From positions 418,717 to 482,716 of the forward strand of contig JBEKOJ010000001.1 of assembly GCA_049521895.1 (NCBI GenBank): DNA of 64,000 nucleotides. Reading direction: 5' to 3'. This document shows positions 4,002 to 52,602 of the stretch, one piece after another. Origin of the DNA: Candidatus Saccharimonadales bacterium. Its GTDB lineage: Bacteria > Patescibacteriota > Saccharimonadia > Saccharimonadales > UBA10212. Numbering within the stretch: position 1 is the first letter of the stretch; each line of letters opens with the position of its first letter. The translations under genes and the position numbers were made by a program. Under the pieces are notes generated by a model. The model saw nothing but the letters and a program-made list of their open reading frames with translations. It had not been told where the DNA came from and did no database searches.

Positions 4002-5006
4002 TCAGGATTTGGTACGGGGCAAGTTGTCGGCTGCCCGGATGACGTTTTCGAACAAAGCGCAGACCGTCAGGGGGCCGACGCCGCCTTTTTCGGGAGTGAT
4101 TATTAGATCATCGCGTTGGTAAACTTCGGGGGCTAGATCACCGACGGTTTTGCCCGATTCGGAGGCCACGCCGGCATCGACCACCACGGCACCAGTTTTT
4201 ATCATGTCCGGATAAAGCACTGCCGGGCTACCAGTAGCTGTGATAATAACGTCGGCTTTCTTGGTATAGTCTGACAAATTTTTGACTTCGCGGCCGATAA
4301 CTTCAACCTCGTAGCCAGAGGCCTTAAGAATTTTTTCTAGCGGTGCGCCAACCAGCTTACCGCGGCCGACCAGTAAAATATGCTTGCCTGCCAGATCAAC
4401 CCCGTAGCCGGCTAGCAGCCACATAATCGCCATCGGCGTCGCCGGTTCAAACCAGGTTCCTCGCACCGTGACGTCCTGCCTTCTGGCGGAGCCAGAAGCA
4501 CCGTCGTCACTTAAGGTCCGCTGCGGCGTCAAAGACTGCGCTACTCCTTCACCGTATTTCATATACGACTCAGTCTGTTGCCCGTCTTTTCCTTGCACCG
4601 CACTCTTATGCGAGGCCCTGGATTTTGTCAAAGGTGGCCATGGTGCATCTGGGTCACCTAGGGCGTCCACGTCCTTTTGCGGTGCTACCAAATTAACTAT
4701 TTCATCTGTTTGGCTGGGATCTGTAAGCGGTAGTTGGACGATGATACTGTGTATGCTGTCGTCATTACTTAACTTGTTAAGTAATTTTGGCGCGTCTTTC
4801 TGTTGGAGCGTATGAATATCTACATCAATACCGACATCGGCGCCGTATTGCTTTTTAAGCCGGACGTAAGTATTGATAACCGGATCGTCTTTAACCTGTA
4901 CAATTGCCAGCTTGGGCCGTATGCCGCGCCCTCGCAGGCTGCGCACCTGTTTAGCGTGGCGCTCCTTGATAAAACCGGCCAGCTCTTGGCCATTAAGTAT
5001 TTTCAT
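4002..5006 (-). CDS. folD: bifunctional methylenetetrahydrofolate dehydrogenase/cyclohydrolase with a ~55-aa internal insertion
   Basis: 334 aa. Motifs IIVQLPL, KDVDA, PATP, GRGKLVGAPL and GGVGPLT are present. The spacer between KDVD and PxTP is ~72 aa versus ~17 in E. coli FolD as I recall it. Confidence 0.85.
   Translation of the reverse strand: MKILNGQELAGFIKERHAKQVRSLRGRGIRPKLAIVQVKDDPVINTYVRLKKQYGADVGIDVDIHTLQQKDAPKLLNKLSNDDSIHSIIVQLPLTDPSQTDEIVNLVAPQKDVDALGDPDAPWPPLTKSRASHKSAVQGKDGQQTESYMKYGEGVAQSLTPQRTLSDDGASGSARRQDVTVRGTWFEPATPMAIMWLLAGYGVDLAGKHILLVGRGKLVGAPLEKILKASGYEVEVIGREVKNLSDYTKKADVIITATGSPAVLYPDMIKTGAVVVDAGVASESGKTVGDLAPEVYQRDDLIITPEKGGVGPLTVCALFENVIRAADNLPRTKS
4764..4785. repeat. 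hairpin palindrome copy 1 (ATTACTTAAC-TT-GTTAAGTAAT), inside folD
   Basis: Read directly from the sequence: 10-2-10 dyad. It encodes LLNKLSN of FolD on the minus strand. Confidence 0.95.
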
Positions 5007-5014: not shown

Positions 5015-5091
5015 TGGAGGGCCAGGAGGGACTCGAACCCTCGACATTCTGCTTAAGAGGCAGACGCTCTAACCAGCTGAGCTACTGGCCC
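5015..5091 (-). tRNA. tRNA-Lys (anticodon CTT)
   Basis: Cloverleaf folded by eye. Anticodon arm is TCTGC-CTCTTAA-GCAGA, T-loop is GGTTCGAGTCC, and CCA is encoded. Confidence 0.9.
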
Positions 5092-7809: not shown

Positions 7810-8373
7810 TTAAGCGCTATTTTCAGGGGTGCCGGTGTCTGGTGCAATCAATTTCTTAGGCAGACCTGACGATTGTTTTTCGGTTTGGGACAGCGTGACT
7901 TGCAGAATTTGCAGCACGCTTTTAGCGTGCTCGCGGCTCATGCCAACCCGGGCAACGCTGGCAGGTTTGGCGTTGGGGCCGGTACTTTGCATAAAATTCA
8001 TTACCACGCCGTAGTTATTGACCATAATGTCCACGATGTCGGTAAACAAAATTCGTGGATCATGATTGCCGGCGGGCAGTTGGGACTGTGGTTTATCATT
8101 GACTACCCGCATAGAAGAGACCCGGCTTATACCATAGCCGGCCAGTCTCCAAAGCCTGACAGCTTCATCGTCACGAACGCCAAAATGGCTAATGAGTAGC
8201 AGCAAGACGTCTTCGGACGGCCGGTTATGGCCAAGCTCAAAACTAGCCAATTGTTTAACGTCAATCTCCACGGCACCAGAGGCCTCGGCCAAGCTTTCGC
8301 GGGCGCGCTCGCGCAACGCTTTAAGTGTCTTACCAAGTTGCTGCATGGAACCCTCTGGTTGTGTTTTGCTCAT
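7810..8373 (-). CDS. XRE-type helix-turn-helix protein with uncharacterised C-terminal domain
   Basis: 187 aa. The N-terminal segment LGKTLKALRERARESLAEASGAVEIDVKQLASFELG is HTH-like. The gene is divergent from murB. Confidence 0.65.
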   Translation of the reverse strand: MSKTQPEGSMQQLGKTLKALRERARESLAEASGAVEIDVKQLASFELGHNRPSEDVLLLLISHFGVRDDEAVRLWRLAGYGISRVSSMRVVNDKPQSQLPAGNHDPRILFTDIVDIMVNNYGVVMNFMQSTGPNAKPASVARVGMSREHAKSVLQILQVTLSQTEKQSSGLPKKLIAPDTGTPENSA

Positions 8374-10860: not shown

Positions 10861-12384
10861 ATGCAAGAAACAAACGAGAAAATCGGTCGTTTAATTTACC
10901 AGATCCGGCAAGAGCGCGGTTTAACGCAGTCGTCTTTTGCCAAAAAACTCGGTACCAGCCAGTCGGCTGTTAACCGGATTGAGCACGGCAGGCAAAATCT
11001 AAGCCTGGACACGCTAGGGCGCATCAGTGATGTACTTAATAAACAGATCATTAGCCTTGGCGAGGGTGGTATCAACCTGCGTGTAGAAGGCGGCCACGAG
11101 TTGCACGGCGAGATTACACTAAAAACCAGCAAGAACGCTGCTGTAGCTCTTTTATGCGCGAGCTTACTAAACCGAGGTATGACCCGCTTTAAATCTTTTC
11201 CACGCATTGAGGAAGTTTTTCGTATCATTGAAGTTCTGGAGAGCATCGGCGTACGGATCAGGTGGCTGAATGGCAATGATCTGGAAATCAAAGTGCCCGC
11301 CCAGCTCGACCTGGAAGCTATGAATAAAGAGTCGGCGCGTAAAACGCGTAGTGTACTAATGTTGCTGGGGCCGTTGATGCATCACCATTCCAGTTTTAAA
11401 ATCCCGTATGCCGGCGGCTGTAAGCTAGGCAGACGTACTGTGGCGCCACACCTATTTGCGCTGGAGCAATTTGGCGTTAACGTAATTGCCACAAGCGGGC
11501 ACTACAATGTGAGAGTTAAAAAGAAAGTTCCCCAGGAAAGAGTCGTGTTATATGAACAAGGTAATACCGTAACTAATAACGTCCTTATGGCCGCGGCGCT
11601 CACCAAAGGCACCACCGTTATTCAATCAGCCAGTGCCGATTACATGGTCCAGGACTTGTGCCACTTTCTAGCCAAACTTGGTGTTAAGATAGACGGCATC
11701 GGCTCACCGGTGCTGACAGTCGAAGGTGTCGGCTCCATAAAGAAAAATGTAACTTACACTCCAACCGAAGATCCGATTGAAGCAATGCTATTTATTGCCG
11801 CTGCCGTAACTACCAATTCGCAGCTGACTATCCGCAGGGTTCCACTCTACTGGATTGGCTTGGAACTTCTTAAGCTACACAAGATGGGGTTAAAGACAGA
11901 AATCAGCCCCACCTATAAAGCTGATAATGGTGTGGTTGATCTGGCTGACATAAAGGTCCATAAACACAATGGCGAACTAACTGCACTAGAAGAAAAATTG
12001 CACCCCAATCTTTGGCCCGGTATTAACCCTGATAATATTCCCTACTTTGTCCCGATTGCGGCTGTTTGCCGTGGTCGAACGGTTATCAACGACTGGATGT
12101 ACGAAAACCGGGCAATTTATTTTACGGAGATGACCAAAATCGGTATGAATATAGAGCTGGCTGACCCACACCGTCTGTATATAGAGGGGCCGACCAAGTT
12201 CAATAAAGCCGACGTAGTTTCACCACCAGCGCTCCGGCCGGCTAGTTTACTGTTGATTGGCATGCTAGCAGCCGATGGTGTCAGTATGCTTCGTAACGTT
12301 TACACCATCAACCGTGGCTATGAGGACTTGGCTGAGCGTCTCAATGGTTTGGGCGCCCATATCGAAGTCATCCACGAAGTCTAA
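10861..12384 (+). CDS. murA: UDP-N-acetylglucosamine 1-carboxyvinyltransferase fused to an N-terminal XRE-type HTH domain
   Basis: 507 aa. Residues 1-65 are HTH-like (GLTQSSFAKKLGTSQSAVNRIEHG). The remainder is an EPSP/MurA fold with the catalytic Cys context PYAGGCKLGRR. Confidence 0.85.
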   Translation: MQETNEKIGRLIYQIRQERGLTQSSFAKKLGTSQSAVNRIEHGRQNLSLDTLGRISDVLNKQIISLGEGGINLRVEGGHELHGEITLKTSKNAAVALLCASLLNRGMTRFKSFPRIEEVFRIIEVLESIGVRIRWLNGNDLEIKVPAQLDLEAMNKESARKTRSVLMLLGPLMHHHSSFKIPYAGGCKLGRRTVAPHLFALEQFGVNVIATSGHYNVRVKKKVPQERVVLYEQGNTVTNNVLMAAALTKGTTVIQSASADYMVQDLCHFLAKLGVKIDGIGSPVLTVEGVGSIKKNVTYTPTEDPIEAMLFIAAAVTTNSQLTIRRVPLYWIGLELLKLHKMGLKTEISPTYKADNGVVDLADIKVHKHNGELTALEEKLHPNLWPGINPDNIPYFVPIAAVCRGRTVINDWMYENRAIYFTEMTKIGMNIELADPHRLYIEGPTKFNKADVVSPPALRPASLLLIGMLAADGVSMLRNVYTINRGYEDLAERLNGLGAHIEVIHEV

Positions 12385-12425: not shown

Positions 12426-12500
12426 GCGGGTGTGGTATAGCGGCTATTACTCCAGTTTTCCAAACTGGTTACGGGGGTTCAACTCCCCCCACCCGCACCA
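12426..12500 (+). tRNA. tRNA-Gly (anticodon TCC)
   Basis: Cloverleaf by eye. Anticodon arm is CCAGT-TTTCCAA-ACTGG. CCA is encoded. Confidence 0.9.
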
Positions 12501-13003: not shown

Positions 13004-13693
13004 ATGCCATCAGTTCAAGAAAAGCACTTTACGGCTTCCGCAACTGTCCGAGATGTTGTTATCGGCATGTCAGATGGCTTGACTGTACCTTTTGCTCTAG
13101 CTGCTGGTTTAACAGGTGCTATAGCTGCCTCCCATTTAATTATTACAGCCGGACTAGCAGAAATTGCCGCGGGCTCGATATCTATGGGTCTAGGCGGTTA
13201 TCTGGCTGCTAAAAGTGACGTTGAACATTATTGGAGAGAGCGCGGCCTCGAGGAACAGGAAGTTCAGGACACACCAAGGGTCGAAGCCCAAGAAGTGCAA
13301 GATATATTCAGACAATATGGCCTAAATAACCACCAGATTGAACCTATCATACGAGGCTTTCAGTCCAATCACAAAGCTTGGATTGATTTTATGATGGCTA
13401 ATGAGCTGGGGCTAGAGAAACCCAAACCCAAGCGTGTGCGTAATAGCGCTCTAACTATCGCCCTAGCCTATGTTACAGGCGGTATAGTACCGCTTTCGCC
13501 CTACTTTTTCATTAGTAATGCTAGACACGCTGTATTGCCTTCGATAGTCGTAACACTTATTGCTTTATTTTTGTTTGGTTTTTTCAAAGCTAAAGTTTCA
13601 GGCACAAAGGCTTGGCGAAGCGCCTGGCAGACAGTTCTGATCGGCGGAATTGCCGCAGCTGCGGCGTTCTTTATCGCTAGGGCTATATCTTAG
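13004..13693 (+). CDS. VIT1/CCC1-family iron/manganese transporter
   Basis: 229 aa. Has the N-terminal RDVVIGMSDGLTVPFALAAG motif and C-terminal TM helices typical of the VIT family. Confidence 0.75.
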   Translation: MPSVQEKHFTASATVRDVVIGMSDGLTVPFALAAGLTGAIAASHLIITAGLAEIAAGSISMGLGGYLAAKSDVEHYWRERGLEEQEVQDTPRVEAQEVQDIFRQYGLNNHQIEPIIRGFQSNHKAWIDFMMANELGLEKPKPKRVRNSALTIALAYVTGGIVPLSPYFFISNARHAVLPSIVVTLIALFLFGFFKAKVSGTKAWRSAWQTVLIGGIAAAAAFFIARAIS

Positions 13694-13704
13694 GCTGGTT
13701 ATAC

Positions 13705-14745
13705 CTAGCTTGTTAAGGTAAGAGCTATAAGGCCAAGAATGTATACGGCTAGAACTATTATCGAATCAACCCCCATACGAAAATAGATTCGCTTCGGTCG
13801 AACCACCAGACCAATTATGTAGATTCCCGTTAGTAGTACGCCTAGTGCTGCAAACCATATATCGCTAGTCGACGCATTCTTTAAGATAGAGTGGCCGGCA
13901 ATCAAATCACAGATTACAAACAGTGCCGGCATGAAGGCATTGCCACCGAAAATATCGCTCATAGCTAGTTTGTAGTCCCCCAGGTCTATGGAGCCGAACC
14001 CCGTACTTATGTTTGGCAAAGCACCAGCAAAAGCGATGAAAGTCGCGGCAAATAAACCTGTGCCAATTCCCCAGGCGTTCGCCAACTGCGTACCGCTAGA
14101 TTGCAATCCAACTCCGGCAACCAAAGTAGCTAGTGCAGCAACTCCAAAAATGAGGAAAATCTTCGAACTGGAGGCACTTTTCAAAGATGGATGGTTAATC
14201 ATAGCCCGTCTCTCATGGTGTTCTCGCCCGGGATGAGCATGAATTGCTTCGCTACGCCAGGGTAAACCCTTTCTGGCCCGAAATATTAACCATAGGCCAA
14301 AAATCCACAGTACAAAAATTAAAGCCGAGGACAGGCTTACTCGCGAATAAATAACCACTGGCGTTTTAATGGCAATAATCGAGGCAACAGCAACCAATAT
14401 GACAATTACTGCTTCCAGAACTAGGGTTAAAGAAGCGGCCGAGAACGTCAGCGGACTGTCAACTTTCATACGAGCATCAAGCAGGCTAATAACTACCGTC
14501 TGAATAGCAATTCCGCCCAGTAAAGTGCCAATGATTACATCGTAATGATGGGCCAGCGCCGCCGACACCACAATGGCGGTTTCTGGCAAACTGGTGGCTA
14601 TACCTAGAATTAACAGGCCGCCAAAAGCGCTCCCAAGCTTATATTTAGCATCTATGGCATCGGTAGTTCGTGTAAGCCATATTCCTGCCACCCAAATCAT
14701 TGCTGCAGAGATTAAAAACTCTAATATCAAACTCAGGTGCGGCAT
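13705..14745 (-). CDS. sodium/calcium exchanger (CaCA) family membrane protein
   Basis: 346 aa, polytopic. Contains the alpha-repeat motif GIATSLPE and a second repeat GALPN. Confidence 0.75.
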   Translation of the reverse strand: MPHLSLILEFLISAAMIWVAGIWLTRTTDAIDAKYKLGSAFGGLLILGIATSLPETAIVVSAALAHHYDVIIGTLLGGIAIQTVVISLLDARMKVDSPLTFSAASLTLVLEAVIVILVAVASIIAIKTPVVIYSRVSLSSALIFVLWIFGLWLIFRARKGLPWRSEAIHAHPGREHHERRAMINHPSLKSASSSKIFLIFGVAALATLVAGVGLQSSGTQLANAWGIGTGLFAATFIAFAGALPNISTGFGSIDLGDYKLAMSDIFGGNAFMPALFVICDLIAGHSILKNASTSDIWFAALGVLLTGIYIIGLVVRPKRIYFRMGVDSIIVLAVYILGLIALTLTS

Positions 14746-19713: not shown

Positions 19714-20097
19714 TTATTTGCTCGGGGGTGGCGTAGCAGCTGGGGCACCGTATTTGGGCAGCGCGAGACGGTCACTCAGACCAGCGCTTAGGGCCTGAAG
19801 GCCTTTGTTAACCCAATCCTCGCCAGCAGTAGCAACAATTGGGATATCATAGCTGTACGCCAGAGCATTAGCGACTGTCAGGCCGATGCGCAGCCCGGTA
19901 AAACTGCCTGGGCCTTTAAAGCACACTATGCCCTCAAGCTGGTCTATGGAAATACTTAACTTGTTAAGTATTTCCTGAATCTTAATATGAATAGTCGCAG
20001 CCAGTTGGCGGTCGGCTGGCCATGCTATATATGCCAATTGCTGGTCGCCATCGTAAATTCCTAGCTCGGCCCCAGGACTATCGGTTTTTAGTGTCAA
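19714..20097 (-). CDS. tsaB: tRNA t6A biosynthesis protein TsaB (short form)
   Basis: 127 aa. Carries the GPGSFTGLRIG motif and sits directly downstream of tsaE. Confidence 0.75.
   Translation of the reverse strand: MTLKTDSPGAELGIYDGDQQLAYIAWPADRQLAATIHIKIQEILNKLSISIDQLEGIVCFKGPGSFTGLRIGLTVANALAYSYDIPIVATAGEDWVNKGLQALSAGLSDRLALPKYGAPAATPPPSK
19950..19973. repeat. hairpin palindrome copy 2 (AAATACTTAAC-TT-GTTAAGTATTT), inside tsaB
   Basis: 11-2-11 dyad read directly from the sequence. It encodes EILNKLSIS. Confidence 0.95.
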
Positions 20098-20102
20098 GAC
20101 TC

Positions 20103-20588
20103 TTATGGTTCAACTCCTTCGAAACGAGCTCGCAGCTGCTCAATCAAACCAGCCAACGATTGCGGGTAAGTTATCTCTACCGCTCTTTCATCGGGACTAT
20201 CTGGCACAGGCTTGAGTCCAACGACCATACGGCTATCCGGCAATACACCGCGCACGATATCACTCCATTCCACCACTGTAATTACCCGGCTTTTTTGCAG
20301 TGACTCTTTCAGCTGGTCAGACACCACGCCGGGCTGGCTCAAGCGGTAAAAATCAAAGTGGTGAATCTCCAGACTTTTAGCCTTGTAGATTTTGCTGAGC
20401 GTGAAAGTCGGGCTGGCAACTTTATCATCGCTGCCCAAACCCCGAGCCAGTCCGCGTACAAAGGTCGTTTTGCCGCCGCCCAGATCAGAGCGCAATTCTA
20501 GGAGTATTGGCGGACTCAGTAGTCTGCCCAGCTGCTCGCCTAGCCTCTCGGTATCGGCGGAAGTGGTAGAGCGCAGCTGCCAAATCAT
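20103..20588 (-). CDS. tsaE: tRNA t6A biosynthesis ATPase TsaE
   Basis: Contains the P-loop SDLGGGKTTFVRGLARGLG. I chose the start at the MIWQL Met; the ORF could begin at 20609. Confidence 0.8.
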   Translation of the reverse strand: MIWQLRSTTSADTERLGEQLGRLLSPPILLELRSDLGGGKTTFVRGLARGLGSDDKVASPTFTLSKIYKAKSLEIHHFDFYRLSQPGVVSDQLKESLQKSRVITVVEWSDIVRGVLPDSRMVVGLKPVPDSPDERAVEITYPQSLAGLIEQLRARFEGVEP

Positions 20589-21876
20589 GTCGGTACTCAT
20601 ATAATGCATATATTACGGCTAGGCCTCCCACGCCGGCAAGTATCGCCGGGTGCAAACTGCCGGATGTTGATGTACCAGCCGTGCTGGAATTCCCTCCTGA
20701 TGAGTTACCGGTACTTATGCCCAGAACAGTCGTACTGTTTGATTTGGTGCTGGAGTTTTTGGCAGCCGGCGGCGCACTGATGACATTTTTGGCGCCGGGG
20801 GTGGCAGCGGTTGTCCATTGCCACAGGCCATCGGCATAAACCCAGGCATAGCCGTCCTTGGCTTTAGTGTAAACATCTGATTGCTCGAGGGTATTGCCCG
20901 AAGGATCAAGAAGCATTACCTGACCACCATTGTTGCTGAGGCTTAACCCGGTTTCTGAAGAATAATATACCCCGAACTGTAGCGGCTGCAGCATAGTGCC
21001 GGCAGGAAAAGTGTATTTATGGGTGGTGCTGATACCGACTTGGATCATAAAACCACTGAGATCGAACGGATGGTTGTTGGAGTTATAAAGCTCAACAAAC
21101 TCATCGTCGGCATCAGTCTGCGGTGGCGCCGGATTGGGTAGGATTTCGGACAGTCGCGGCGCGGCTAGACCAACATCGTCGGCAGGCAGCCCGGCATCTG
21201 AAGAGTTGCCGGTAACGCCTACAACACTAGGCACAGCGCCGCCGGCCTGTTCCAAGCCGGTGGACACGCTGCCGCCGGTACTGACGTCAAGCTGGCAGGC
21301 GTTGTTGCTGTCCAAATCAGCCAGCTGCCACTTATAAATGCCGCCGTTGGCGTAACGATAGTACATGCCTTTGGGGTCCTTACTGCTGGAGGGTACATTT
21401 TGAATCTGGCCGTTAGTGGCAGAAGACCACGATAAGGCGTCAACCGGTGTTTGCGATACGCCCAAGCTGCCCAGGCCAGTTTGTACTATTTGCAAAAATC
21501 CGGCAGTGTCGCCCAAGTTAACAGACAGTTTGCCAGTTGCTACCGCGCCGCAAGTATTCATCCCAACCGAACTGAGCAGAATGGTTTGGCCAATTGCCAG
21601 CTTGACGGCCGGTAGTTGCTGCGAAGACTTACTGACTCCAATATCCAGTGGATTATAACTGTTAAATTCATCCAGCCAATAGCTGCTGAGGTCGGCGATG
21701 TCTTTATCGCTATTGTTTTGTAGAACTAGAAATTCATCACCGGTGATTTTAATTTCTGCAACAGCTAGGGTGGGTGGCACCGCCATCATAGATGGCCCAG
21801 CAGCTAATGTCAGCGGCTGGACAGCCATAATTAGCCAGGTAAGCATAAGAAATACTACTATAAAATATTTCTTCAT
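20485..21876 (-). CDS. secreted/anchored protein with two lamin-tail-like domains and a C-terminal TM helix
   Basis: 463 aa with a signal-like N-terminus. LSEILPNPAPPQTDADDEFVELYN and AEIKITGDEFLVLQN are LTD-type motifs. The 3' end overlaps tsaE by about 100 nt in another frame. Confidence 0.7.
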   Translation of the reverse strand: MKKYFIVVFLMLTWLIMAVQPLTLAAGPSMMAVPPTLAVAEIKITGDEFLVLQNNSDKDIADLSSYWLDEFNSYNPLDIGVSKSSQQLPAVKLAIGQTILLSSVGMNTCGAVATGKLSVNLGDTAGFLQIVQTGLGSLGVSQTPVDALSWSSATNGQIQNVPSSSKDPKGMYYRYANGGIYKWQLADLDSNNACQLDVSTGGSVSTGLEQAGGAVPSVVGVTGNSSDAGLPADDVGLAAPRLSEILPNPAPPQTDADDEFVELYNSNNHPFDLSGFMIQVGISTTHKYTFPAGTMLQPLQFGVYYSSETGLSLSNNGGQVMLLDPSGNTLEQSDVYTKAKDGYAWVYADGLWQWTTAATPGAKNVISAPPAAKNSSTKSNSTTVLGISTGNSSGGNSSTAGTSTSGSLHPAILAGVGGLAVIYALYEYRHDLAAALYHFRRYREARRAAGQTTESANTPRIAL

Positions 21877-21978
21877 ATGCTCAAATTAGGCACTTATACC
21901 CGCACTTACAGTAAACAGATTATACCTTATCTCCCCAAAGTCCTTGACGACTTAGGGTACTTGGTGTACCATGACTTT

Positions 21979-22359
21979 ATGATTAATGGGATGAATGAAA
22001 AGCAAGCGAGGGAAGCGCTTAAGCGCCTGTTTAACGGTGTGAACGGCAATCAGATAACCCGCAAACAAATACTGGATAAAATCAGCTATAAGACCCTGAC
22101 AAACTACAGCCCCGCTCTAGTAGGCTATGGGTTGTGGACTCCTAAGAGAAGTGGCCGCAAGTATACGTCTTGGGAATTGACCGATAAGGGTAAGGAGGTG
22201 CTAGTTCTAGGCGCCCCGACCATACCAGAACAACAGACGCTAGTCCCCCGAGTAACTTCTGACTCCGATATCTACGCTGAGGCTATCCGTATCACCAATG
22301 AGTTCAATGACCGCTACAAGGCCGGTAAACACGAATGGAGGTTAGTAGAGAAAGGATAA
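21979..22359 (+). CDS. hypothetical IS passenger protein (possible winged-helix DNA binding)
   Basis: The ORF-track start at 21877 lies outside the IS boundary, so I start at the first internal Met. The protein is basic and helix-rich with no firm motif. Confidence 0.45.
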   Translation: MINGMNEKQAREALKRLFNGVNGNQITRKQILDKISYKTLTNYSPALVGYGLWTPKRSGRKYTSWELTDKGKEVLVLGAPTIPEQQTLVPRVTSDSDIYAEAIRITNEFNDRYKAGKHEWRLVEKG

Positions 22360-22377
22360 GCTGTTAATGCTCATTGC

Positions 22378-22547
22378 CCTGAACAGGCCTAAACGGGGAG
22401 AATCACCTTGAGAAAGTGCCCCAAACCTGTTCAGGACAGTGCGCACTAGCGATAGCGTACAGGTGGGGTGATACGGGAGGTCTCCGTAAATCCACGTGGT
22501 GGTGACTAGGCTGGCCAAGCTGAAACCCCGTATCCGCCCATCTGTAC
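22378..22547. ncRNA. strongly structured non-coding segment inside the IS
   Basis: A perfect 10-bp stem joins CCTGAACAGG (22378-22387) and CCTGTTCAGG (22426-22435). A second 21-position stem (18 Watson-Crick pairs, 1 G-U and 2 mismatches) joins 22457-22477 and 22527-22547. No ORF is present. Confidence 0.45.
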
Positions 22548-22585
22548 ACTATCAAGCTTATTTTAACTTTTTAATTCCTAATTGT

Positions 22586-22624
22586 CAACAGCTATCTCTG
22601 TTGATTACGCTGTACTGCTATAAT
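22586..22624 (+). promoter_or_regulatory. internal promoter TGCTATAAT preceded by dyad CAACAG-N6-CTGTTG
   Basis: The dyad spans 22586-22603. TATAAT lies at 22619-22624, followed by AAGGAG and a GTG start. Confidence 0.45.
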
Positions 22625-22646
22625 AATAGCATAAGGAGCAAGCCTC

Positions 22647-22766
22647 GTGCCCAAAAAAGACAACCCAATCCCTTCTACAACCAAAAATGAGTTTTTTAGG
22701 GTATTAAAAAAGGTTAGTCGCAAGACAAAGCAGAAACCCAAAGAAGCATCACCGAAAGCGCATTAA
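22647..22766 (+). CDS. possible 39-aa lysine-rich micro-protein
   Basis: GTG start 8 nt after AAGGAG. The peptide is VPKKDNPIPSTTKNEFFRVLKKVSRKTKQKPKEASPKAH. It is not in the ORF track because it is below the size cutoff. Confidence 0.3.
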   Translation: MPKKDNPIPSTTKNEFFRVLKKVSRKTKQKPKEASPKAH

Positions 22767-23230
22767 TGAATCCGGCGGTCTATTAATATCTGTAGTGTTT
22801 TAATCACACCCTCTATAATTGCCAAGATAGCGCCGCCAACTACCGCACCTGTATAGAATCGTTGAGATCTACCGTACGCTTTCAAAGAATCATCTACTAA
22901 ACCAGCGGGGTATATAAAAAACTTCTTACCTATAAAGTGGCGGCCTTTAATAGAAGTTACATATAAAGTCCAGTTACTACTAAGCCAATCTATGTATCCG
23001 TGTTCCTTAGATGCAACTAATATTGCGGCAACAGTACTCTCGCTTGGTTTTCTGAGTTTCCGAGATTTTATGTAGTCTTGAGTGAGGGCGAGCAATGCCT
23101 CGTTTTGTGCCTTGAAGGTTTGGGTGTGAGAAAGTATCTCGTACCTATTAGAATCTATGTACCTTACTAACTTGTACATATCTTTCATCTCTGCCATACG
23201 CTGAATTATACCTCTTGTCTGCGCAATCAT
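22763..23230 (-). CDS. hypothetical IS passenger protein with C-terminal hydrophobic helix
   Basis: 155 aa. Its start overlaps the transposase stop by 4 nt (ATGA), implying co-translation with the transposase. Confidence 0.55.
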   Translation of the reverse strand: MIAQTRGIIQRMAEMKDMYKLVRYIDSNRYEILSHTQTFKAQNEALLALTQDYIKSRKLRKPSESTVAAILVASKEHGYIDWLSSNWTLYVTSIKGRHFIGKKFFIYPAGLVDDSLKAYGRSQRFYTGAVVGGAILAIIEGVIKTLQILIDRRIH

Positions 23231-24111
23231 GTCTTACTCCGTGCAGATATGCTTACCTTGTCCATCAAAGCCCAAAACATAGGCTGAAAATCGTTTCTAT
23301 GGCTCTGCCTAAATGCATATTCGTTCACGTAGTTTTGTAAATGCTGAGAGCTAACGTGTCTATATACGCCCCGCATTCCACGCTTCATGTTACCCCAAAA
23401 GTTCTCAATGTTTTGGGTGTGAGTATCACCATCAACGTAATGCCTTTTGCCATGCTGGATAGTCTCATGGTAATAGCCTTTTTTATAAAGGCGTTTGTAG
23501 GAGCGGTGCTCATCAGAATAGATGGTAGACTCTCGCTGGATGTTCTCTTCAACTTCCCGTAATAACACTAACTCACCAGCAGACTTAACGTGCTTGGCTC
23601 TGACTACTCCGCCACGCTCGGCCATACCAAAGACCACAGGATTATCCTTCCTTGACTTATGAGGCTTACGAATGGTAGAGCGCTTTAGCGGGTCGGCGTG
23701 CATATAAGTTTCATCAATCTCAATTTCACCGTATAATCGCTCGCCATCATCACTCATCATAGATCTAATCTGGTGAAACATCCGCCACGCGGTTTTGTAA
23801 GTTACCCCTGTTTCACGCTCTAACTGTTTGGCTGAGATTCCGGCTCTAGTAGCGGCCATAATGAATATAGCCTCAAACCATATAGTTAAAGGTGTACTAG
23901 ATTTGTGGAAGATGGTATTTGCAGTAGGAGATGTAGAACCACCACAGTATTCGCAAGCATAAACTTTCATACTCCTTCGTTTGTGGTGAGGAGTTATCTT
24001 CTCACACTTCTTGCAAGTTATGCCCTCTGGGTACAGATATTCTTTCAACCATTCCAGACAAGCATCCTCATTTGGGAAATCTATCTTTAACTGTTGTCGT
24101 GTATATTTCAT
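23227..24111 (-). CDS. IS1595-family (ISXO2-like) DDE transposase
   Basis: 294 aa. Has an N-terminal Cys-rich zinc ribbon (CKKCE...CEYCG), an HTH (GISAKQLERETGVTYKTAWRM), EIDETY and DEHRSY acidic motifs. Confidence 0.9.
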   Translation of the reverse strand: MKYTRQQLKIDFPNEDACLEWLKEYLYPEGITCKKCEKITPHHKRRSMKVYACEYCGGSTSPTANTIFHKSSTPLTIWFEAIFIMAATRAGISAKQLERETGVTYKTAWRMFHQIRSMMSDDGERLYGEIEIDETYMHADPLKRSTIRKPHKSRKDNPVVFGMAERGGVVRAKHVKSAGELVLLREVEENIQRESTIYSDEHRSYKRLYKKGYYHETIQHGKRHYVDGDTHTQNIENFWGNMKRGMRGVYRHVSSQHLQNYVNEYAFRQSHRNDFQPMFWALMDKVSISARSKT

Positions 24112-24342
24112 GACGATATTAAACCTCCTTTCAATGAGGTTAAACTGAACTTAATTGAATATTTTTAGGTTTTTCGTTAATTAACCCTTTTAATTAACCC
24201 TTACTGTAGGTCAGGGTATAAGTGCCTCAAATTATATCTCTCAGCTTACTCTCAGCAAGCGCTTGTGCTAATAATTATGTTGTGGATATTAACGCAAGTT
24301 CAGTAGTAGCGTGATAATTGCTAGACGGCTATACTGGAGGGT

Positions 24343-24870
24343 ATGTTAAGGTTAAGCGCTAGCCTTAGAAACCAGCCGGTACTGAGTTTAAGGTCCGGCG
24401 ACCAAATCACTACGGCCATCGAACCGATTATTAATCCGCATAACCTAAAAATAGTCGGCTGGTGGTGTAAAGCGCCCGCTGGCAAAGAACTGGTATTACT
24501 AGCAGACAACGTGCGCGAGATTATGCCAAATGGCCTGGCCGTGAACGACGATGCCGACCTTAGCGACCGGAAAGATTTAGTCCGTCACGATGATATTCTA
24601 AAAATCCGTTTCCAGCTGCTAGATAAACTGGTCAAAACCAAGCGTCAAAAGTTGGGTAAAGTCAGCGACTTTAGCTATAACGACGGCTTGTTCGTGCAAA
24701 AACTATACGTAGCGCGCAGTCTGGCCAAAGTTTTCTCCAAAGATGAAACTTTACTGATTGACCGAACGCAGATTTTGGAAGTTACTGATAATTATATTTT
24801 AGTACGCGATAGTGATGTAAAGGCAACCGAAGAAGAGCTGGCTGGTGCGCTGGGTACGGTTGCCGCTTAG
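24343..24870 (+). CDS. PRC-barrel-like domain protein
   Basis: 175 aa with two repeats of a PRC-barrel-like pattern (VLSLRSGDQI..., GKVSDFSYND...). The assignment is tentative. Confidence 0.5.
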   Translation: MLRLSASLRNQPVLSLRSGDQITTAIEPIINPHNLKIVGWWCKAPAGKELVLLADNVREIMPNGLAVNDDADLSDRKDLVRHDDILKIRFQLLDKLVKTKRQKLGKVSDFSYNDGLFVQKLYVARSLAKVFSKDETLLIDRTQILEVTDNYILVRDSDVKATEEELAGALGTVAA

Positions 24871-24897
24871 AAATACCCAGGCATGTTTACTCTGTTA

Positions 24898-24921
24898 AAT
24901 TACTTAACTTGTTAAGTAATT
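24898..24921. repeat. hairpin palindrome copy 3 (AATTACTTAAC-TT-GTTAAGTAATT), intergenic
   Basis: 11-2-11 dyad lying between the convergent stops of 24343-24870 and recX. Confidence 0.95.
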
Positions 24922-24925
24922 GGGG

Positions 24926-25525
24926 TTAGGTATTTTTTAGAGTTCGGTTAATCAATTCGTAATCGAACCCTTGTTGGGCTAAGTATTGTTTAAGCTTAAG
25001 AGGATCGTTTTGATAGCGTAATAGTTTGGTTTTCTTAGCGATTAAGCTTTCCAGGCGTTTTTTCTCATTATTCTCCGAGCCAGCTAGAACTTCATCTGCC
25101 ACTTTCCTATTGATCCCTTTCGTGAAAAGCCCACTGCGGATCGCGCGGTTACTTTTGCCCCGGCGAGTCTGCAAATCTACGAACCAGATAGCAAATTTGG
25201 CGTCATCAAGATATTTTTTTTGACTAAAATCATTGATTAAATTTCTTATCTGCTCGGGCGCGGCTTTTTTTCGGTAGAGATAATCCTTAAACTCACGCTC
25301 CGAGTGCGGCCGGTTAAGCAGCCACTCCAGCGCCCAGGCTTTTAGCTTGCCGTCCTCAGAAATTTTTTTGAATTTTTTAACCTCGGCTACGCTCAGCTCG
25401 TCGTTTTGTTTAACTTTATATCTAATCAGTTCGTCCAGGCTAAGCGAGAAGCTATACTTATTATCTACAAAGACGCTCACCCGCTGTGAATTTTTAACTT
25501 GCTGCTCAAGGGCGGTTATTTTCAT
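24926..25525 (-). CDS. recX: recombination regulator RecX
   Basis: 199 aa with three-helix repeat pattern. It lies in the recA gene cluster, two genes downstream. Confidence 0.8.
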   Translation of the reverse strand: MKITALEQQVKNSQRVSVFVDNKYSFSLSLDELIRYKVKQNDELSVAEVKKFKKISEDGKLKAWALEWLLNRPHSEREFKDYLYRKKAAPEQIRNLINDFSQKKYLDDAKFAIWFVDLQTRRGKSNRAIRSGLFTKGINRKVADEVLAGSENNEKKRLESLIAKKTKLLRYQNDPLKLKQYLAQQGFDYELINRTLKNT

Positions 25526-25534
25526 AAGCTAACC

Positions 25535-26590
25535 TTAAAGAGCCTGCAGAGAATGTGTTTCTATCTGAGAGCGCTCGGCGAGCAGGCCGTGTTTGCCGTT
25601 GGGGTAAACAAAATATTGATGCGGCATATTTAGTTGATTAAGGGCGCGGCTTAAATCGGCGGAGAATCTGGGTGGCACTATACGATCCTTGGCGCCTACA
25701 TATATTTGAATATAGGCATGTGTGTGAATTAAGAAATTAAGCGGCGAGGTATAGTCCCAAAATTTAGGGTTAGTGAGAGGCGTACCATATTTTTTGAGCA
25801 CCGATTTGTGTATAGAAAACGCCACCGGGTTAGCCACATCAGATTTGGGCATATAAGAACTAAACATATCTTGCACATTGCCCACCGGGCCGGATAGCAG
25901 GATAACATTTTTGATATCCGGCGAAAGTACCGCCGCCCGCAGCGCCAAGTAGGCACCCATACTGTGACCCCAAAGACTAATATTTTTAGCATTTAGTCCC
26001 GGGGTATCTTTAATTGAAGCTATCAAACTCAGGATGTCGGTGTTGTAGGCCATGGAATAGTAGGCGCCCTCCGGTTTACCCTGATGGATTGACACCCCCT
26101 GCCCCCGCAGGTCGGGCTTAACAACTGCAAAACCGTGCTGGCTGTAAAATTCCATATCAGGCAAATAAGCTTTTTTAGTAGAATAGGCCGCCGGCTGGAT
26201 GTAGCCATGCAGCAGAATAATCACCGGATAACCAGCTGGTGGTGGTGGAGTACTTGGAGTGGTCATCAATCCATATTCGGTCAATCCGTCTGCCGGTACC
26301 GAAAAATTTATGATCGCCCGCTGGACATTGTGGTCAGGGCCAAGCACTGAGACCTTTTTAAGTAGGTTGCCCCGATAAACAGCCTGGGCGGCAATCCGCA
26401 AATCAAGATTGGCATAAGGCTGGTTGGTGGATATTAGTTGGTTGGTGTTGAACGATTTGGTGGTAAAAGGTTCGCCGACTTCATTGCCAACGATATAAAT
26501 TAAAATCAGTACCGTTAGCAAACAGACAAAAATAAGTATAGATTTTAGTGAAAGGTGGCTGATTTTTGCACTTAGCTGACGGAGTTTCAT
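25535..26590 (-). CDS. alpha/beta hydrolase (S9/dienelactone-hydrolase-like) with N-terminal anchor
   Basis: 351 aa with an N-terminal TM helix and the nucleophile elbow GHSMGA. Confidence 0.75.
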   Translation of the reverse strand: MKLRQLSAKISHLSLKSILIFVCLLTVLILIYIVGNEVGEPFTTKSFNTNQLISTNQPYANLDLRIAAQAVYRGNLLKKVSVLGPDHNVQRAIINFSVPADGLTEYGLMTTPSTPPPPAGYPVIILLHGYIQPAAYSTKKAYLPDMEFYSQHGFAVVKPDLRGQGVSIHQGKPEGAYYSMAYNTDILSLIASIKDTPGLNAKNISLWGHSMGAYLALRAAVLSPDIKNVILLSGPVGNVQDMFSSYMPKSDVANPVAFSIHKSVLKKYGTPLTNPKFWDYTSPLNFLIHTHAYIQIYVGAKDRIVPPRFSADLSRALNQLNMPHQYFVYPNGKHGLLAERSQIETHSLQAL

Positions 26591-26593
26591 AGT

Positions 26594-27040
26594 TTAGCGG
26601 CCTATGACTAGTATAAAAGCTAGGGCTATAGCAAACCAGACCATTTCCACATAAAGTCCTCTTGGCAATTCGACGCGCTGGATCGTTTTATGATAGCGCC
26701 GCAATTGGCCTAATAATCCTGACTGATAAATTTTTGGCGGTTTGCCCTGCAAAATTTCTGGCAGCCACATAACATCCGGCGCCATACACAACAGACCGCA
26801 AGTTATCACCAGCCAGCCAGGGATTACTAACACAATGGCTAAAATTATAAGCAAGATGATACTTAAGGATAAATCGCTGCCCATAGCAATCTTGCGAGCC
26901 AGCCCAGTAAGCCCATAGTCCCAGTGGGGGATAGCATCAATGGCAAAGTGAGCAAGTAGCGCCAGCGGCAAAGCCAGCTCAGGCTGTTTGATAACAACAG
27001 CTACCAGTGCGCCGGTCGCGGCATGATTAAGCCCGGTCAT
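26594..27040 (-). CDS. small polytopic membrane protein
   Basis: 148 aa, hydrophobic, with His-rich HFAIDAIPHWDY. It sits immediately downstream of recA. Confidence 0.5.
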   Translation of the reverse strand: MTGLNHAATGALVAVVIKQPELALPLALLAHFAIDAIPHWDYGLTGLARKIAMGSDLSLSIILLIILAIVLVIPGWLVITCGLLCMAPDVMWLPEILQGKPPKIYQSGLLGQLRRYHKTIQRVELPRGLYVEMVWFAIALAFILVIGR

Positions 27041-27051
27041 CTGACCCTATT

Positions 27052-28083
27052 CTACTCAGCTTGGGCAGCAGCCATGGTCTCTTTGGCAATTTTTTCTAAA
27101 ACTTTTGGATTATCTTTCAGATATTGCTTGGCGGCTTCGCGGCCCTGGGCGATCTTCTGGCCCTGGTATTCGTACCAAGCGCCATTTTTATCCACCACTC
27201 CGTGAGCAGCGGCCAGGTCAATTACGTCACCCTCAATGCTAATCCCTTGGTTGTACATAATATCAAACTCGGCTTCACGGAACGGCGGCGCAACTTTGTT
27301 TTTGACAACCTTGACGCGGCAGTGGTTGCCTATGACGGTATCGCCAGACTTAATTTGACTGAGGCGACGGATATCCATGCGTACGGTAGCATAAAACTTC
27401 AGGGCATTGCCGCCGGTGGTGGTCTCGGGGTTACCAAACATCACGCCGATTTTCATCCTAAGCTGGTTCACAAAAATTACTGTGCATTTGGTACGGTTGA
27501 TGACGGCGGCGAGTTTGCGCAGTGCTTGGCTCATCAATCGGGCTTGCAAACCCATGTGGGCATCACCCATATCACCCTCGATTTCAGCCTGTGGTACCAG
27601 AGCGGCCACGGAATCCACCACAATAATATCGACAGCATTGCTGCGCACTAGTGCCTCAACGACTTCCAGAGCTTGCTCGCCGCTGTCCGGCTGGCTGATT
27701 AGCAGATTATCAATGTTGACCCCCAGACGTTTGGCATAAGCTGGGTCTAGGGCGTGTTCGGCATCTACGTAAGCCGCCGTGCCGCCGGTTTTTTGGACTT
27801 CGGCTACGGCGTGTAAGCAAACTGTGGTTTTTCCCGAAGATTCCGGCCCGTAGATTTCAATAACGCGGCCTTTGGGAATACCGCCGCCAAGCGCCAGATC
27901 GAGGCTTAGGCTACCAGATGGAATAGTCTCGACGTCAATTCTGTGGGCTTCGCCAAGACGCATAATGCTGCCTTTACCAAACTGTTTTTCAATCTGGTCG
28001 ACAGCTAGTTGCAGGGCTTGGGATTTGCCGCTGCCGGCGGCCGATGCGGCGCCATCTTTTTTAACTTTGGTTTTGTCAGCCAT
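27052..28083 (-). CDS. recA: recombinase RecA
   Basis: 343 aa with Walker [10 protein letters not shown] and the RecA signature [14 protein letters not shown]. Confidence 0.97.
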
Positions 28084-28232
28084 AAAGATTCTCCTTACCC
28101 GCCTTAAATCCGACGGATGTGCTTTCTAGTTTCAAGTATATCAGGCGGCACTGCTACAAAAAGTGCTGAAGCTTAAAAATAGCTGAGAAATAACATATCG
28201 TCCCTGTGGATGGTACTCAATTCTTAGCAGTT

Positions 28233-32021: not shown

Positions 32022-32087
32022 ACGCTTATTGTACTAGAGTGGGCCAGCCTGCAGGTAGCGATAGATTCTGGGTTATACTTAAAGCAT

Positions 32088-35133: not shown

Positions 35134-35258
35134 GTTTACCTCTATCCACATCTTTGCTTGACAAGCTTATGCTTATATTTATACAATCAAGCTCATGGAA
35201 CGGCTGCGTTCAGCGAATATACAAATTAGTTGATAAACCATATTAGAAGGGTGGGAAT

Positions 35259-35711: not shown

Positions 35712-35728
35712 TCCTAGCAATTAGGTAC

Positions 35729-35767
35729 AACAAACCCGGAAGGATGTAGCTTTCCGGGTTTGTTTAT
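35729..35767 (+). terminator. rho-independent terminator after pilA
   Basis: ACAAACCCGGAA / TTCCGGGTTTGT 12-bp stem followed by TTAT. Confidence 0.7.
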
Positions 35768-38696: not shown

Positions 38697-38718
38697 AATA
38701 CTTAACTTGTTAAGTATT
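38697..38718. repeat. hairpin palindrome copy 4 (AATACTTAAC-TT-GTTAAGTATT), intergenic
   Basis: 10-2-10 dyad lying between the pil operon end and the convergent stop of 38723-39379. Confidence 0.95.
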
Positions 38719-48687: not shown

Positions 48688-49629
48688 TTAGTCTAAATAA
48701 CTTAAGAGTTCTTGTAAGCTTCTAGCTGCCATTAGCTTTTCGCGTAGTTCTTTGGCATCGTCAAAGCCGTTTATATAGATCTTGCAGAATTTATTAAGAG
48801 TTTCTACCCTCCGCTCACCATTTTTCCAAGTTCTCGCAAATAGCCTGACGTGTTTGCGATATAGCTCTATCTTCTGCTCTTTACCAAAGCTTGCCCACGG
48901 GCTGGTTCTGGCAAATACGAACGGATCATTGAATACTCCGCGACCGATCATTACACCGTCCAGCTCATATTTTTTGGCCAGCTTCTCGGCTTGCTGGCGG
49001 CTCATAACATTGCCGTTACCAACAATCAGCGTAGAAGGGCAGAGGGCATCGCGCGTTTCCCGGGCTTGGCCGACTAAATCCCAATTAGCCGGAACTTTAG
49101 AGAGTTGCTTAGCTGTCCGGCCATGAATACTTAACATGTTAAGTTTTTTCGTCAGCAGGAACTCGATCCAGCCCATATCTACTGTTGTAAATCCTACGCG
49201 CGTTTTGATGCTAACAGGGAAGTCCTTGCCCACCCCCTCTCTTGTTGCATCAATAATTTCCGCCGCTAGCTCTCTGTTGTTCATCAGTGCTGCGCAAGCG
49301 CCATTTTTGATAACTGTTTTGACTGGGCACCCCATGTTAAGGTCTATCCCATCAAACCCCATGGCTTTTATTTCGGTTGCGGTTTTTTTAAAATTTTCGG
49401 GTTTTAGCCCCCACAACTGGGCAAAAATCGGCCGCTCTTTATCTGTAAAACGCAATTTTGGCAGCAGCTTTTCCCGCCCTGGGCTCTGTAGGCCATCAAC
49501 GTTTACAAATTCAGTGATAAACAGATCCGGCTTGGCACAATCGGCTACGATCTGGCGGAAAACTGTGTCCGTAACATCGTCCATTGGCGCCAACACCAAA
49601 AACGGCCTCGGTAATTGATTAACATTCAT
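48688..49629 (-). CDS. dus: tRNA-dihydrouridine synthase
   Basis: 313 aa with LAPMDDVTD, DLNMGCP (catalytic Cys) and HGRT motifs. Confidence 0.85.
   Translation of the reverse strand: MNVNQLPRPFLVLAPMDDVTDTVFRQIVADCAKPDLFITEFVNVDGLQSPGREKLLPKLRFTDKERPIFAQLWGLKPENFKKTATEIKAMGFDGIDLNMGCPVKTVIKNGACAALMNNRELAAEIIDATREGVGKDFPVSIKTRVGFTTVDMGWIEFLLTKKLNMLSIHGRTAKQLSKVPANWDLVGQARETRDALCPSTLIVGNGNVMSRQQAEKLAKKYELDGVMIGRGVFNDPFVFARTSPWASFGKEQKIELYRKHVRLFARTWKNGERRVETLNKFCKIYINGFDDAKELREKLMAARSLQELLSYLD
49129..49144. repeat. variant of the hairpin palindrome (ACTTAACATGTTAAGT, perfect 16-mer), inside dus
   Basis: It has the same arms as the main motif with a CATG centre. It encodes KLNMLS. Confidence 0.8.
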
Positions 49630-51958: not shown

Positions 51959-52602
51959 TTTAAAAATTCTTCTCTAGTTCCGTCTATTAATATAACCTGT
52001 CCATCCTCCAGTGGCTTGTATGAAATCTTGTGCTTTTTAAAATACTGGATTGATTTATCGGCCTCTGCACCAAACCAATCAGACTTGCAGTGTGGAACAA
52101 TCATAAAATCGACCAGACCTAATCCATCCCAGATAATTTCTTTGTTAGGATAATTATCTGGAACCGCATCCGGCTGTGGTCTATCGCCGTATTCAATACC
52201 GCGCAGTGACGGGGCGGTAATACAGGCTCCGGCACTCCAACCACCGTAAAGAATTTTATCTTCTTTTAGCAATTTTTTAAGGATCATATCGAGGCTGCTG
52301 GCTCTCATAGCTCTGCGCAAAATGAAAGTATTTCCGCCTGATGACCAGAGTGAGCCAAAATTACTTAACTTGTTAAGTAATTTCTCCGATTCACCGAAAT
52401 AATCGCGCAGGTCTATTTCTTCAAATTCAAATCCGGCGGCTTCAAACATCTTTTTCTTTTCTGGGGTACTCCAATTTCTCTCCTCTGGAGACAAATCATC
52501 TTGGGCATTCTTTAAATAGGCAGCTTTTTTGTTCTTGCCCGCCAGTTTTGCGGCGACTTCAGGGTAATTTCCAAGGTCTTGTGATGACAAAAATAGGCGC
52601 AT
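51955..52602 (-). CDS. peptidase E-like (S51 family) protein
   Basis: 215 aa with SSGGNTF and GWSAGA (nucleophile Ser) motifs. Confidence 0.7.
   Translation of the reverse strand: MRLFLSSQDLGNYPEVAAKLAGKNKKAAYLKNAQDDLSPEERNWSTPEKKKMFEAAGFEFEEIDLRDYFGESEKLLNKLSNFGSLWSSGGNTFILRRAMRASSLDMILKKLLKEDKILYGGWSAGACITAPSLRGIEYGDRPQPDAVPDNYPNKEIIWDGLGLVDFMIVPHCKSDWFGAEADKSIQYFKKHKISYKPLEDGQVILIDGTREEFLK
52358..52383. repeat. hairpin palindrome copy 5 (AAATTACTTAAC-TT-GTTAAGTAATTT), inside the S51 peptidase gene
   Basis: 12-2-12 dyad. It encodes EKLLNKLSNF. Confidence 0.95.

Follow-up and report, generated by a model that had tools for sequence, protein, structure and literature searches.

The described systems closest to the element reported here are the DNA uptake sequences (DUS) of Neisseria and the uptake signal sequences (USS) of Pasteurellaceae, the parS and Noc-binding sites (NBS), the repetitive extragenic palindromic (REP) sequences and REP doublets forming hairpins (REPINs), the highly iterated palindrome HIP1 of cyanobacteria, and the Rickettsia palindromic elements together with in-frame miniature inverted-repeat transposable elements (MITEs). 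The element itself was found in a 64-kb stretch of DNA from a Saccharimonadales genome (contig JBEKOJ010000001.1, positions 418,717 to 482,716; the whole stretch is called the window below), and its core would be a 16-bp inverted repeat, ACTTAAC-WW-GTTAAGT, that appears to be specific to Candidatus Saccharibacteria. Saccharibacteria are tiny epibiotic bacteria and, with the other Patescibacteria, form a large and poorly understood share of bacterial diversity. To our knowledge, almost nothing is known about how small genomes are organized, segregated, exchanged or transcribed in Patescibacteria. A literature search returned nothing on this sequence, nor on uptake sequences or palindromes in Saccharibacteria. 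The palindrome is a real, Saccharibacteria-wide cis-element under nucleotide-level selection that has apparently not been described.

DUS and USS occur about once per kb as single asymmetric 9–12-mers. The palindrome is like them in being an exact word kept lineage-wide, in substitution into coding sequence in a permissive frame, in enrichment past genes, in orthologous positions and in the company of ComEC and pilus genes. However, with 6 copies per 64 kb it is 10–100 times sparser, and its half-site is not enriched whereas the palindromic whole is. The parS sites and NBS, which are read by a dimeric ParB-family protein, share with it a palindrome of 14–16 bp, tens of copies mostly in genes, and wide conservation; copies of parS and NBS as a rule depart from the consensus, whereas the copies described here are nearly all perfect. 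REP and REPIN sequences, which go with RAYT transposases, are likewise short hairpin-forming palindromes at gene 3′ ends, often between convergent genes, with strand-specific G·T pairs in the stem. REPs are reported to lie strictly outside genes, to be species-specific, to reach hundreds of copies and to be marked by a GTAG or CGTC tag (PMC3733652). In contrast, the present palindrome lies in long open reading frames (ORFs) in about 65% of cases and stays the same throughout a class-level lineage, and neither GTAG nor CGTC occurs in its consensus. HIP1 (GCGATCGC) is also a lineage-specific palindrome with substitution into coding sequence, orthologous conservation and a debated function, but it has 8 bp and thousands of copies where the present one has 16–24 bp and tens. 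The Rickettsia palindromic elements and MITEs also place palindromic DNA in protein genes; they are insertions that add residues, whereas the FolD and TsaB hosts here are not lengthened.

Copies of the palindrome in the window

An earlier sequence-only reading of this DNA had pointed out that one nucleotide string is written as L-N-K-L-S into three unrelated enzymes, FolD, TsaB and an S51 peptidase, with a variant, CTT AAC ATG TTA AGT, in Dus. The string and the peptides were as described there, the three hosts are backed by Pfam, and the Dus variant is present at 49129, where it reads L-N-M-L-S. Beyond that account, the string is palindromic, lies also outside genes and is common to a whole bacterial lineage. 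The coding copies that had been listed are thus real, but the list lacked two exact intergenic copies (24902 and 38700) and a decayed copy (13703).

Plus-strand positions 4764-4785 read ATTACTTAACTTGTTAAGTAAT, and the minus strand reads A CTT AAC AAG TTA AGT within the FolD ORF (4002-5006). The 15-mer CTTAACAAGTTAAGT has five exact matches in the 64-kb window, all on the minus strand (4767, 19954, 24902, 38700 and 52363), and CTTAACATGTTAAGT at 49129 is a one-mismatch variant of it with an AT centre, itself a perfect 16-bp palindrome. The exact 16-mer ACTTAAC-TT-GTTAAGT was counted five times, plus one centre variant, against an expectation of 0.16–0.73. In the null model, 100 dinucleotide-preserving shuffles of the window, the mean was 0.16 matches at ≤2 mismatches and no shuffle reached the observed count, which ruled out chance or low complexity as the source of the copies. 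The 18-mer TACTTAACTTGTTAAGTA is common to all five exact copies, each of which has TT on the plus strand. The copies are palindromic, with arms of 10–13 nt around a 2-nt centre, and no other perfect inverted repeats with a short spacer in the window have arms as long. The flanks were symmetric in 5/5 exact copies and took two forms, AATT..AATT and AAT..ATT; with them, the consensus would be AAAT (or AATT)-core-ATTT (or AATT), 20–28 bp in all.

Four copies are coding. Copy 1 (4764..4785) is ATTACTTAAC-TT-GTTAAGTAAT with 10-nt arms that are 100% complementary; it forms codons 75-81 of the minus-strand folD (4002..5006; Pfam THF_DHG_CYH and THF_DHG_CYH_C) and reads L-L-N-K-L-S-N, within the peptide KLLNKLSND. 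Copy 2 (19948..19975), a 28-nt perfect palindrome GGAAATACTTAAC-TT-GTTAAGTATTTCC (13-nt arms, 100%), reads E-I-L-N-K-L-S-I-S (EILNKLSIS) in a short minus-strand tsaB-type gene of 127 residues (19714..20097; Pfam TsaD family). Copy 5 (49129..49144) is the perfect 16-bp palindrome ACTTAAC-AT-GTTAAGT in the minus-strand dus (48688-49629; Pfam Dus), where it gives the peptide KKLNMLSI, and copy 6 (52358..52383), AAATTACTTAAC-TT-GTTAAGTAATTT with 12-nt arms (100%), reads K-L-L-N-K-L-S-N-F in a minus-strand S51 peptidase gene (51955-52602; Pfam Peptidase_S51; peptide EKLLNKLSNF).

The other two copies are intergenic, each between convergent genes. Copy 3 (24898..24921), AATTACTTAAC-TT-GTTAAGTAATT, lies 9 nt past the stop of the minus-strand recX (24926..25525), whose site homologous to the mid-gene motif of other clades reads L-I-N-D-F-S. 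Copy 4 (38697..38718), AATACTTAAC-TT-GTTAAGTATT, lies 7 nt past the stop of a minus-strand bPH_2 gene (38723-39379) that adjoins it at the end of the pilus operon; a bPH_2 orthologue in another locus (L110) carries a copy at the same post-gene position. The decayed copy (13703..13718), ACCTAGC-TT-GTTAAGG with three mismatches, sits exactly where the convergent genes VIT1 (13004-13693, plus strand) and Na_Ca_ex (13705-14745, minus strand) meet. The end of recX itself (24926-24945, minus strand) reads AAAAATACCTAAC, which differs at one position from the element's left half plus flank, and the full copy follows 8 nt on; together with the recX stop of L201, which is inside the motif, this near-half points to a short duplication, or to a site made anew, in the lineage of the window. 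A gene for an IS1595-family (ISXO2-like) transposase (23227-24111, minus strand) lies about 800 bp from the copy at the recX end, and no link to the palindrome was seen.

Codon constraint and distribution across Saccharibacteria

FolD orthologues with DNA from metagenomes (n = 79) were collected with seeds (GGVGPLTVC and G[RK]GKLVG[AEK]P) that lie elsewhere in the protein than the motif, a choice made to avoid ascertainment bias. L-N-x-L-S peptides numbered 13 (12 of the 79 orthologues plus the window), and they were encoded by CTT in 13/13, AAC in 13/13, TTA in 12/13 and AGT in 12/13. All six L-N-K-L-S peptides of this set, as well as that of the window, were written CTT AAC AAG TTA AGT, the central Lys being AAG in 7/7. 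The same codons have lower shares in the same folD genes overall (CTT 0.14, AAC 0.51, TTA 0.14, AGT 0.10 and AAG 0.33), and at conserved Leu columns outside the motif the mean share of the top codon was 0.44, Leu and Ser codons varying freely there. The centre of the motif was variable (AA 8, AT 3, TT 3, CT 1, AG 1 and AC 1), giving K, M, L, R or T with the arms unchanged. Mismatches at the FolD site were bimodal: about 21 orthologues had 0–1, two had 2–3 and the others had 4–9. The saccharibacterial FolD proteins that lack the motif keep a general L-[LI]-x-x-L-N-x-D with free codon choice. At the protein level, LNKLS was present in 47 of the 120 closest FolD relatives.

These results showed that the nucleotides rather than the peptide or a codon preference are under purifying selection. 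The earlier claim that selection or drive at the DNA or RNA level must account for identical codons, which nothing forces, was borne out in this independently seeded set, in which the motif codons were near invariant and CTT, TTA and AGT were minor codons elsewhere in the genes. LNKLS appeared lineage-specific among the orthologues, and no case came to light of distant phyla encoding LNKLS by varied codons. The shared reading frame is indeed forced, as had been noted: only one frame per strand is free of stops because the other two contain TAA.

The claim of substitution without a gap also held in two hosts. In HMMER alignments to solved structures, LLNKLSNDD of FolD was ungapped against LINTLNHDD of PDB 3p2o, and EILNKLSIS of TsaB was ungapped against EVLKEAGLT and EILAASGAS of YeaZ/TsaB structures. 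Because both alignments are ungapped at the motif, they support its entry into FolD and TsaB by substitution and not by insertion. For the S51 peptidase, the alignment to a solved structure had a 3-residue indel adjoining the motif, at low identity. The element enters genes by point substitution in the sole stop-free frame, at sites where the peptide already resembled L-x-x-L-[NS].

Two hosts have unusual lengths away from the motif. Compared with solved structures, the FolD of the window (4002-5006) carries an insertion of ~54 residues (at residues ~117-184) that separates the catalytic domain from the NAD(P)-binding one, and FolD relatives fall into two length classes (~262-280 and ~322-340 residues). 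TsaB has ~127-131 residues in the clade, approximately the N-terminal half of the usual ~210-230, and the short form is kept in the window (19714-20097) and in the related loci L201:13515-13910, L202:13103-13495 and L203:9803-10195.

An exact scan for TACTTAACTTGTTAAGTA in 185,579 species genomes (bacteria and archaea, one per species) matched at least 110 stretches. Nearly all of the matches listed were metagenome-assembled genomes of Candidatus Saccharibacteria or Saccharimonadales, or probably mis-binned contigs with the same host genes. Nucleotide identity to the window in conserved genes was at most ~74% for every matching locus listed, so that the word has stayed the same over deep divergence. 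The few non-saccharibacterial matches listed, in an archaeon, a betaproteobacterium, Neptuniibacter and Clostridia, seem to be due to chance. Several contigs carry other labels (Sulfotelmatobacter, Burkholderiaceae, Verrucomicrobiia, Dormiibacterota and Babeliales; L009, L061, L068, L069 and the DATIIZ01 loci L010, L015, L021, L038 and L080); they are probably mis-binned or mislabelled Saccharibacteria, since the motif sits in the same Saccharibacteria-type genes, recX, valS and nifS. The 18-mer also matched in an uncultured marine bacterium (ERR599062_bin.104, L027:6347-6375 and L050:2262-2290) within a short tandem array, gttACTTAACTTGTTAAGTaacaagttaagtaac, of ACTTAACTTGTT-like units, which is probably an unrelated repeat. 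Among 2.9 million viral contigs of IMG/VR, a pattern with a free centre gave 10 matches with mixed centres, approximately the chance level. A phage or mobile origin was rejected on this result, on the unlengthened host proteins and on the spacer between recX and the next gene, which has no added length in loci with the motif.

Exact copies from the matches listed and the window (n = 118) comprised 68 in a long ORF with AAG in sense (L-N-K-L-S), 10 in an ORF with TTG in sense (L-N-L-L-S, a few of them chance hits) and 40 intergenic ones; about 60–65% of copies are coding, including those in the essential valS, folD and gatB. Among the matches listed, the copies recurred at orthologous positions in recX (26 of 110 loci), valS (9), folD (7), cysteine desulfurase (6), rsuA/rluB (5), apbE (4), tsaB (3), glyA (3) and gatB (2), and single cases were found in MurI, TilS, glutamate dehydrogenase, a glycosyltransferase and others; host names beyond the Pfam-tested ones are our reading of the sequences. 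Six of the site-bearing families (folD, murI, glyA, tsaB, recX and tilS) have orthologues in the window. The recX copy is mid-gene in other Saccharibacteria clades and at the stop in the window and in L201, where the stop codon is inside the motif.

Degenerate copies were few: in 841 kb, a sample chosen for exact copies, the arms were exact at 120 sites and had one mismatch at 13 sites and two at 12. The genome of the window has about one copy per 11–14 kb (6 in 64 kb), and the density in its close relatives L201-L203 is similar; in most other Saccharibacteria loci listed it is about one per 50–190 kb. The adjoining sequence of the same genome had no exact copy in 19 kb: the 10 kb on the left had none, and the 9 kb on the right had one 2-mismatch copy. 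This copy, aaatACTTAGCAAGTCAAGTattt at L205:6095-6110, lies about 4 kb past the right end of the window, 5 nt past a guanylate kinase stop and upstream of hrcA-grpE-dnaK.

Placement, orientation and possible roles

The intergenic copies that could be classified (n = 32, matches listed and window) were 17 convergent, 14 tandem and 1 divergent. Those in tandem spacers always adjoin the stop of the upstream gene, and the intergenic copies lie 2–17 nt past a stop or provide it, the stop codon being the TAA of the motif itself; several intergenic positions are common to different genomes. A promoter or operator role was discarded, as 31/32 of these copies are at 3′ ends, and this placement suggests a chromosome-level or DNA-processing signal rather than promoter control. 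The half-site TACTTAAC occurred twice outside full sites, against 1.9 expected, so that enrichment applies to the inverted repeat as a whole, and a DUS-like single word was rejected. Avoidance of restriction sites was dismissed too, CTTAAG and GTTAAC not being depleted.

At the tsaB site, the window has CTT AAC AAG TTA AGT (LNKLS), L201 and L203 have CTT GAC TTG TTA AGT (LDLLS), and L202 has CTT AAC AAG TCA AGT (LNKSS). The interior of the L202 site is the exact reverse complement of that of L201; therefore, the palindrome interior was inverted and three residues were changed at once. Orientation is accordingly not conserved between orthologous sites, and it does not track replication, because the copies with TT in sense are in host genes co-oriented with their neighbours and with the local GC skew. 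A polar signal of the Chi, FtsK orienting polar sequence (KOPS) or Ter type was rejected on these two grounds, although the copies of the window all have one orientation. The simplest account of the roughly 70:30 excess of AAG in sense is that proteins tolerate Lys better than Leu at this place. Where a gene lacks its internal copy, one tends to lie next to that gene, as for recX (window and L201), glyA (L055 and L063) and folD (L113, L147 and L152); the folD copy is either in the gene or ~180 nt downstream, and the glyA copy either in the gene or past its stop. This replacement is a weak hint in favour of a function bound to the locus over a signal that depends on density only.

Canonical parS was absent from the window: the consensus TGTTNCACGTGAAACA (or ATTTCCCGGGAAAT) had no match at ≤3 mismatches, and the half-site of the palindrome is unrelated to it. 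A tblastn search with Spo0J and Soj, a weak test, found neither in 1.3 Mb of site-bearing loci, and dnaA was present in 1 of the 110 site-bearing loci listed, approximately the chance expectation. A canonical parS or origin-proximal cluster was rejected on these three results.

The reading that we prefer, and hold with moderate confidence from these comparisons of sequence, is that the palindrome is a cis-acting DNA element read by a putative sequence-specific factor and placed where it is least harmful. Such a factor is proposed because the arm sequence is fixed and not merely self-complementary. The reader would most likely be a protein, either a dimer on the symmetric duplex or a binder of an extruded hairpin or cruciform. 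Copies persist at orthologous positions across genera while their interior may flip by inversion, and the element resembles a signal for DNA processing or at the level of the chromosome, one that would be active wherever it is placed; chromosome organization, recombination or DNA uptake, and the formation of transcript 3′ ends are the candidate processes.

Several observations hinted at a paired form. The symmetric flanks take two alternative forms within one genome, and flank position 2 covaries (T..A/A..T in 55/80 against 35 expected, a figure inflated by related sites). The sites L003:280 and L201:2036 carry compensated G5-C12 variants. A recurrent variant, ACTTGAC-YY-GTTAAGT, was found at ~9 independent sites, with that strand sense or antisense and the position-5 G in cis with the pyrimidine centre; variant pairs on the pyrimidine-centre strand were G·T rather than A·C by 18:6. 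In the sense strand of coding sequence, the G5 variant was G·U-compatible in 5 cases and an A·C mismatch in 4. The predicted RNA stems of exact copies had energies of -6 to -13 kcal/mol (z -2 to -7.5), with -13.3 kcal/mol (z = -7.5) for copy 2 in tsaB and -9.3 kcal/mol for copy 6 in the S51 peptidase gene. C7 and G10 would be loop bases, yet they are invariant, which counts against a hairpin.

A number of points weigh against the preferred reading. About 28–36 bits appear to be conserved, where ~13 bits would be enough for 6 sites in 64 kb, and ordinary binding sites less often show such excess information than do elements that a drive has spread. Copy number is widely uneven between genomes, which is odd for a housekeeping landmark. 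The scan-derived loci, those listed out of at least 110 matching stretches, were picked for exact matches. The evidence for the hairpin form of the element is weakened in that the intergenic flank symmetry comes mostly from the fixed AAAT..ATTT consensus, compensatory double variants were only 1/14, and at two FolD sites the G5 change is on the opposite strand. This sequence-based analysis identified no binding factor.

Among the alternatives, the palindrome may be a specificity signal for DNA uptake or recombination, which we regard as unlikely. DNA with the word would then be preferred for uptake or recombination, and molecular drive would let the word build up at the ends of genes and within core genes, as for DUS in Neisseria and USS in Pasteurellaceae. 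The exactness of the word, with few degenerate copies in the sample chosen for exact ones, and an information content that seems far above the need of recognition would both suit such a signal, as would its forced frame in coding sequence, its presence directly past stops and its retention at orthologous positions in core genes, of which recX was the most frequent among the matches listed. The window encodes ComEC (PF03772), PilB, PilC, PilM, pilins, RecA, RecX and RuvABC, and natural transformation is established in Saccharibacteria, although the published work names no required signal and mentions no uptake signal (PMC10633639). The sparsity relative to known uptake sequences and the enrichment of the full inverted repeat alone, where the known words are single asymmetric units, speak against uptake; so does the relocation of sites beside the same gene (recX, glyA and folD), which a signal acting through density only does not predict. 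In a special form of this idea, which we consider distinctly unlikely, the palindrome would be a hairpin-forming self-recognition signal for uptake or recombination, read by a pilus- or ComEC-associated factor. If true, this special form would account for a perfect, lineage-wide, freely inverting element concentrated in core and genome-maintenance genes, and no earlier signal of this kind would be known from the candidate phyla radiation or with a palindromic sequence.

An RNA hairpin, with the same stem from either strand and a CAAG or CUUG loop, might instead act, through an RNA-binding protein or an RNase, as a signal for 3′-end formation, processing, stability or attenuation; we find this quite improbable. 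The intergenic copies directly past stops, 31/32 of them convergent or tandem, and the predicted stem energies are consistent with it, as is the association of sites with particular genes. In addition, canonical intrinsic terminators were at the chance level (23 against 20.3 expected, window positions 20001-40000), and an alternative 3′-end signal would be useful for that reason in a genome that seems to be without them. However, the placement downstream of genes holds for the intergenic third only, most copies (~60%) being inside essential coding sequence; no U-tract follows ATTT, the core has 2 G-C pairs, the G5 variant leaves an A·C mismatch on the sense strand in 4 cases, and the conservation of the loop positions C7 and G10 is unexplained. 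An intrinsic terminator in particular was rejected, since 2/7 core pairs are G-C, the flanks past ATTT are not T-rich and the terminator scan missed the sites. A known RNA family was likewise set aside: no Rfam model matched the palindrome, and only 12 tRNAs reached the gathering score in the window. A palindrome without function, perpetuating itself by template switching in quasi-palindromes and gene conversion between copies, would agree with the interior inversion between close relatives, with the extension of perfect palindromy in coding sequence to 28 nt in tsaB and with the compensated variants, which fit quasi-palindrome correction. However, a perfect palindrome is usually unstable and disfavoured by selection, and template switching cannot fix one 7-nt arm across genera with at most 74% identity to the window; it also leaves the avoidance of promoter spacers and the kept-or-gone bimodality in FolD unexplained, and we rate this explanation as very doubtful. 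Finally, the peptide L-N-K-L-S could itself be selected, the same pentapeptide being found in many unrelated enzymes, with nucleotide identity following from codon bias. We give this practically no credence and consider a protein-level motif refuted: the frozen codons CTT, TTA and AGT are minor ones, about a third of the copies are intergenic, the inversion in tsaB swaps LDLLS for LNKSS wholesale, and the centre residue can be K, M, L, R or T while the arms stay fixed.

If the cis-element reading is correct, a word that is constant across genera and dictates residues in FolD, ValRS, RecX, GlyA and TsaB would imply a novel sequence-specific reader and a genome-level process. The palindrome would provide a concrete bait for pull-down or DNA affinity purification sequencing (DAP-seq) and a variable for the existing transformation systems, and the motif could be used as a diagnostic marker for Saccharibacteria contigs. 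It also offers a clean example from nature of protein sequence overridden by constraint on the DNA, with three residues swapped by one inversion.

Other genes of the window

Genome-maintenance and competence genes cluster at 27052-38476 and 39470-55272 (recA, recX, ruvB, ruvA, ruvC, yebC and comEC). These regions also contain a type IV pilus cluster with a pilin-like protein of 534 residues, pilB, pilC, a pilin gene and pilM. MurA (EPSP_synthase family; 10861-12384, plus strand) carries a fused N-terminal Xre-type HTH_3 DNA-binding domain, which is unusual for a cell-wall enzyme, and could be considered as a candidate reader of the palindrome; a separate HTH_31 protein is encoded at 7810-8373. 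The twelve tRNA genes of the window are single and scattered (e.g., 5018-5091, 12426-12497 and 48580-48652).

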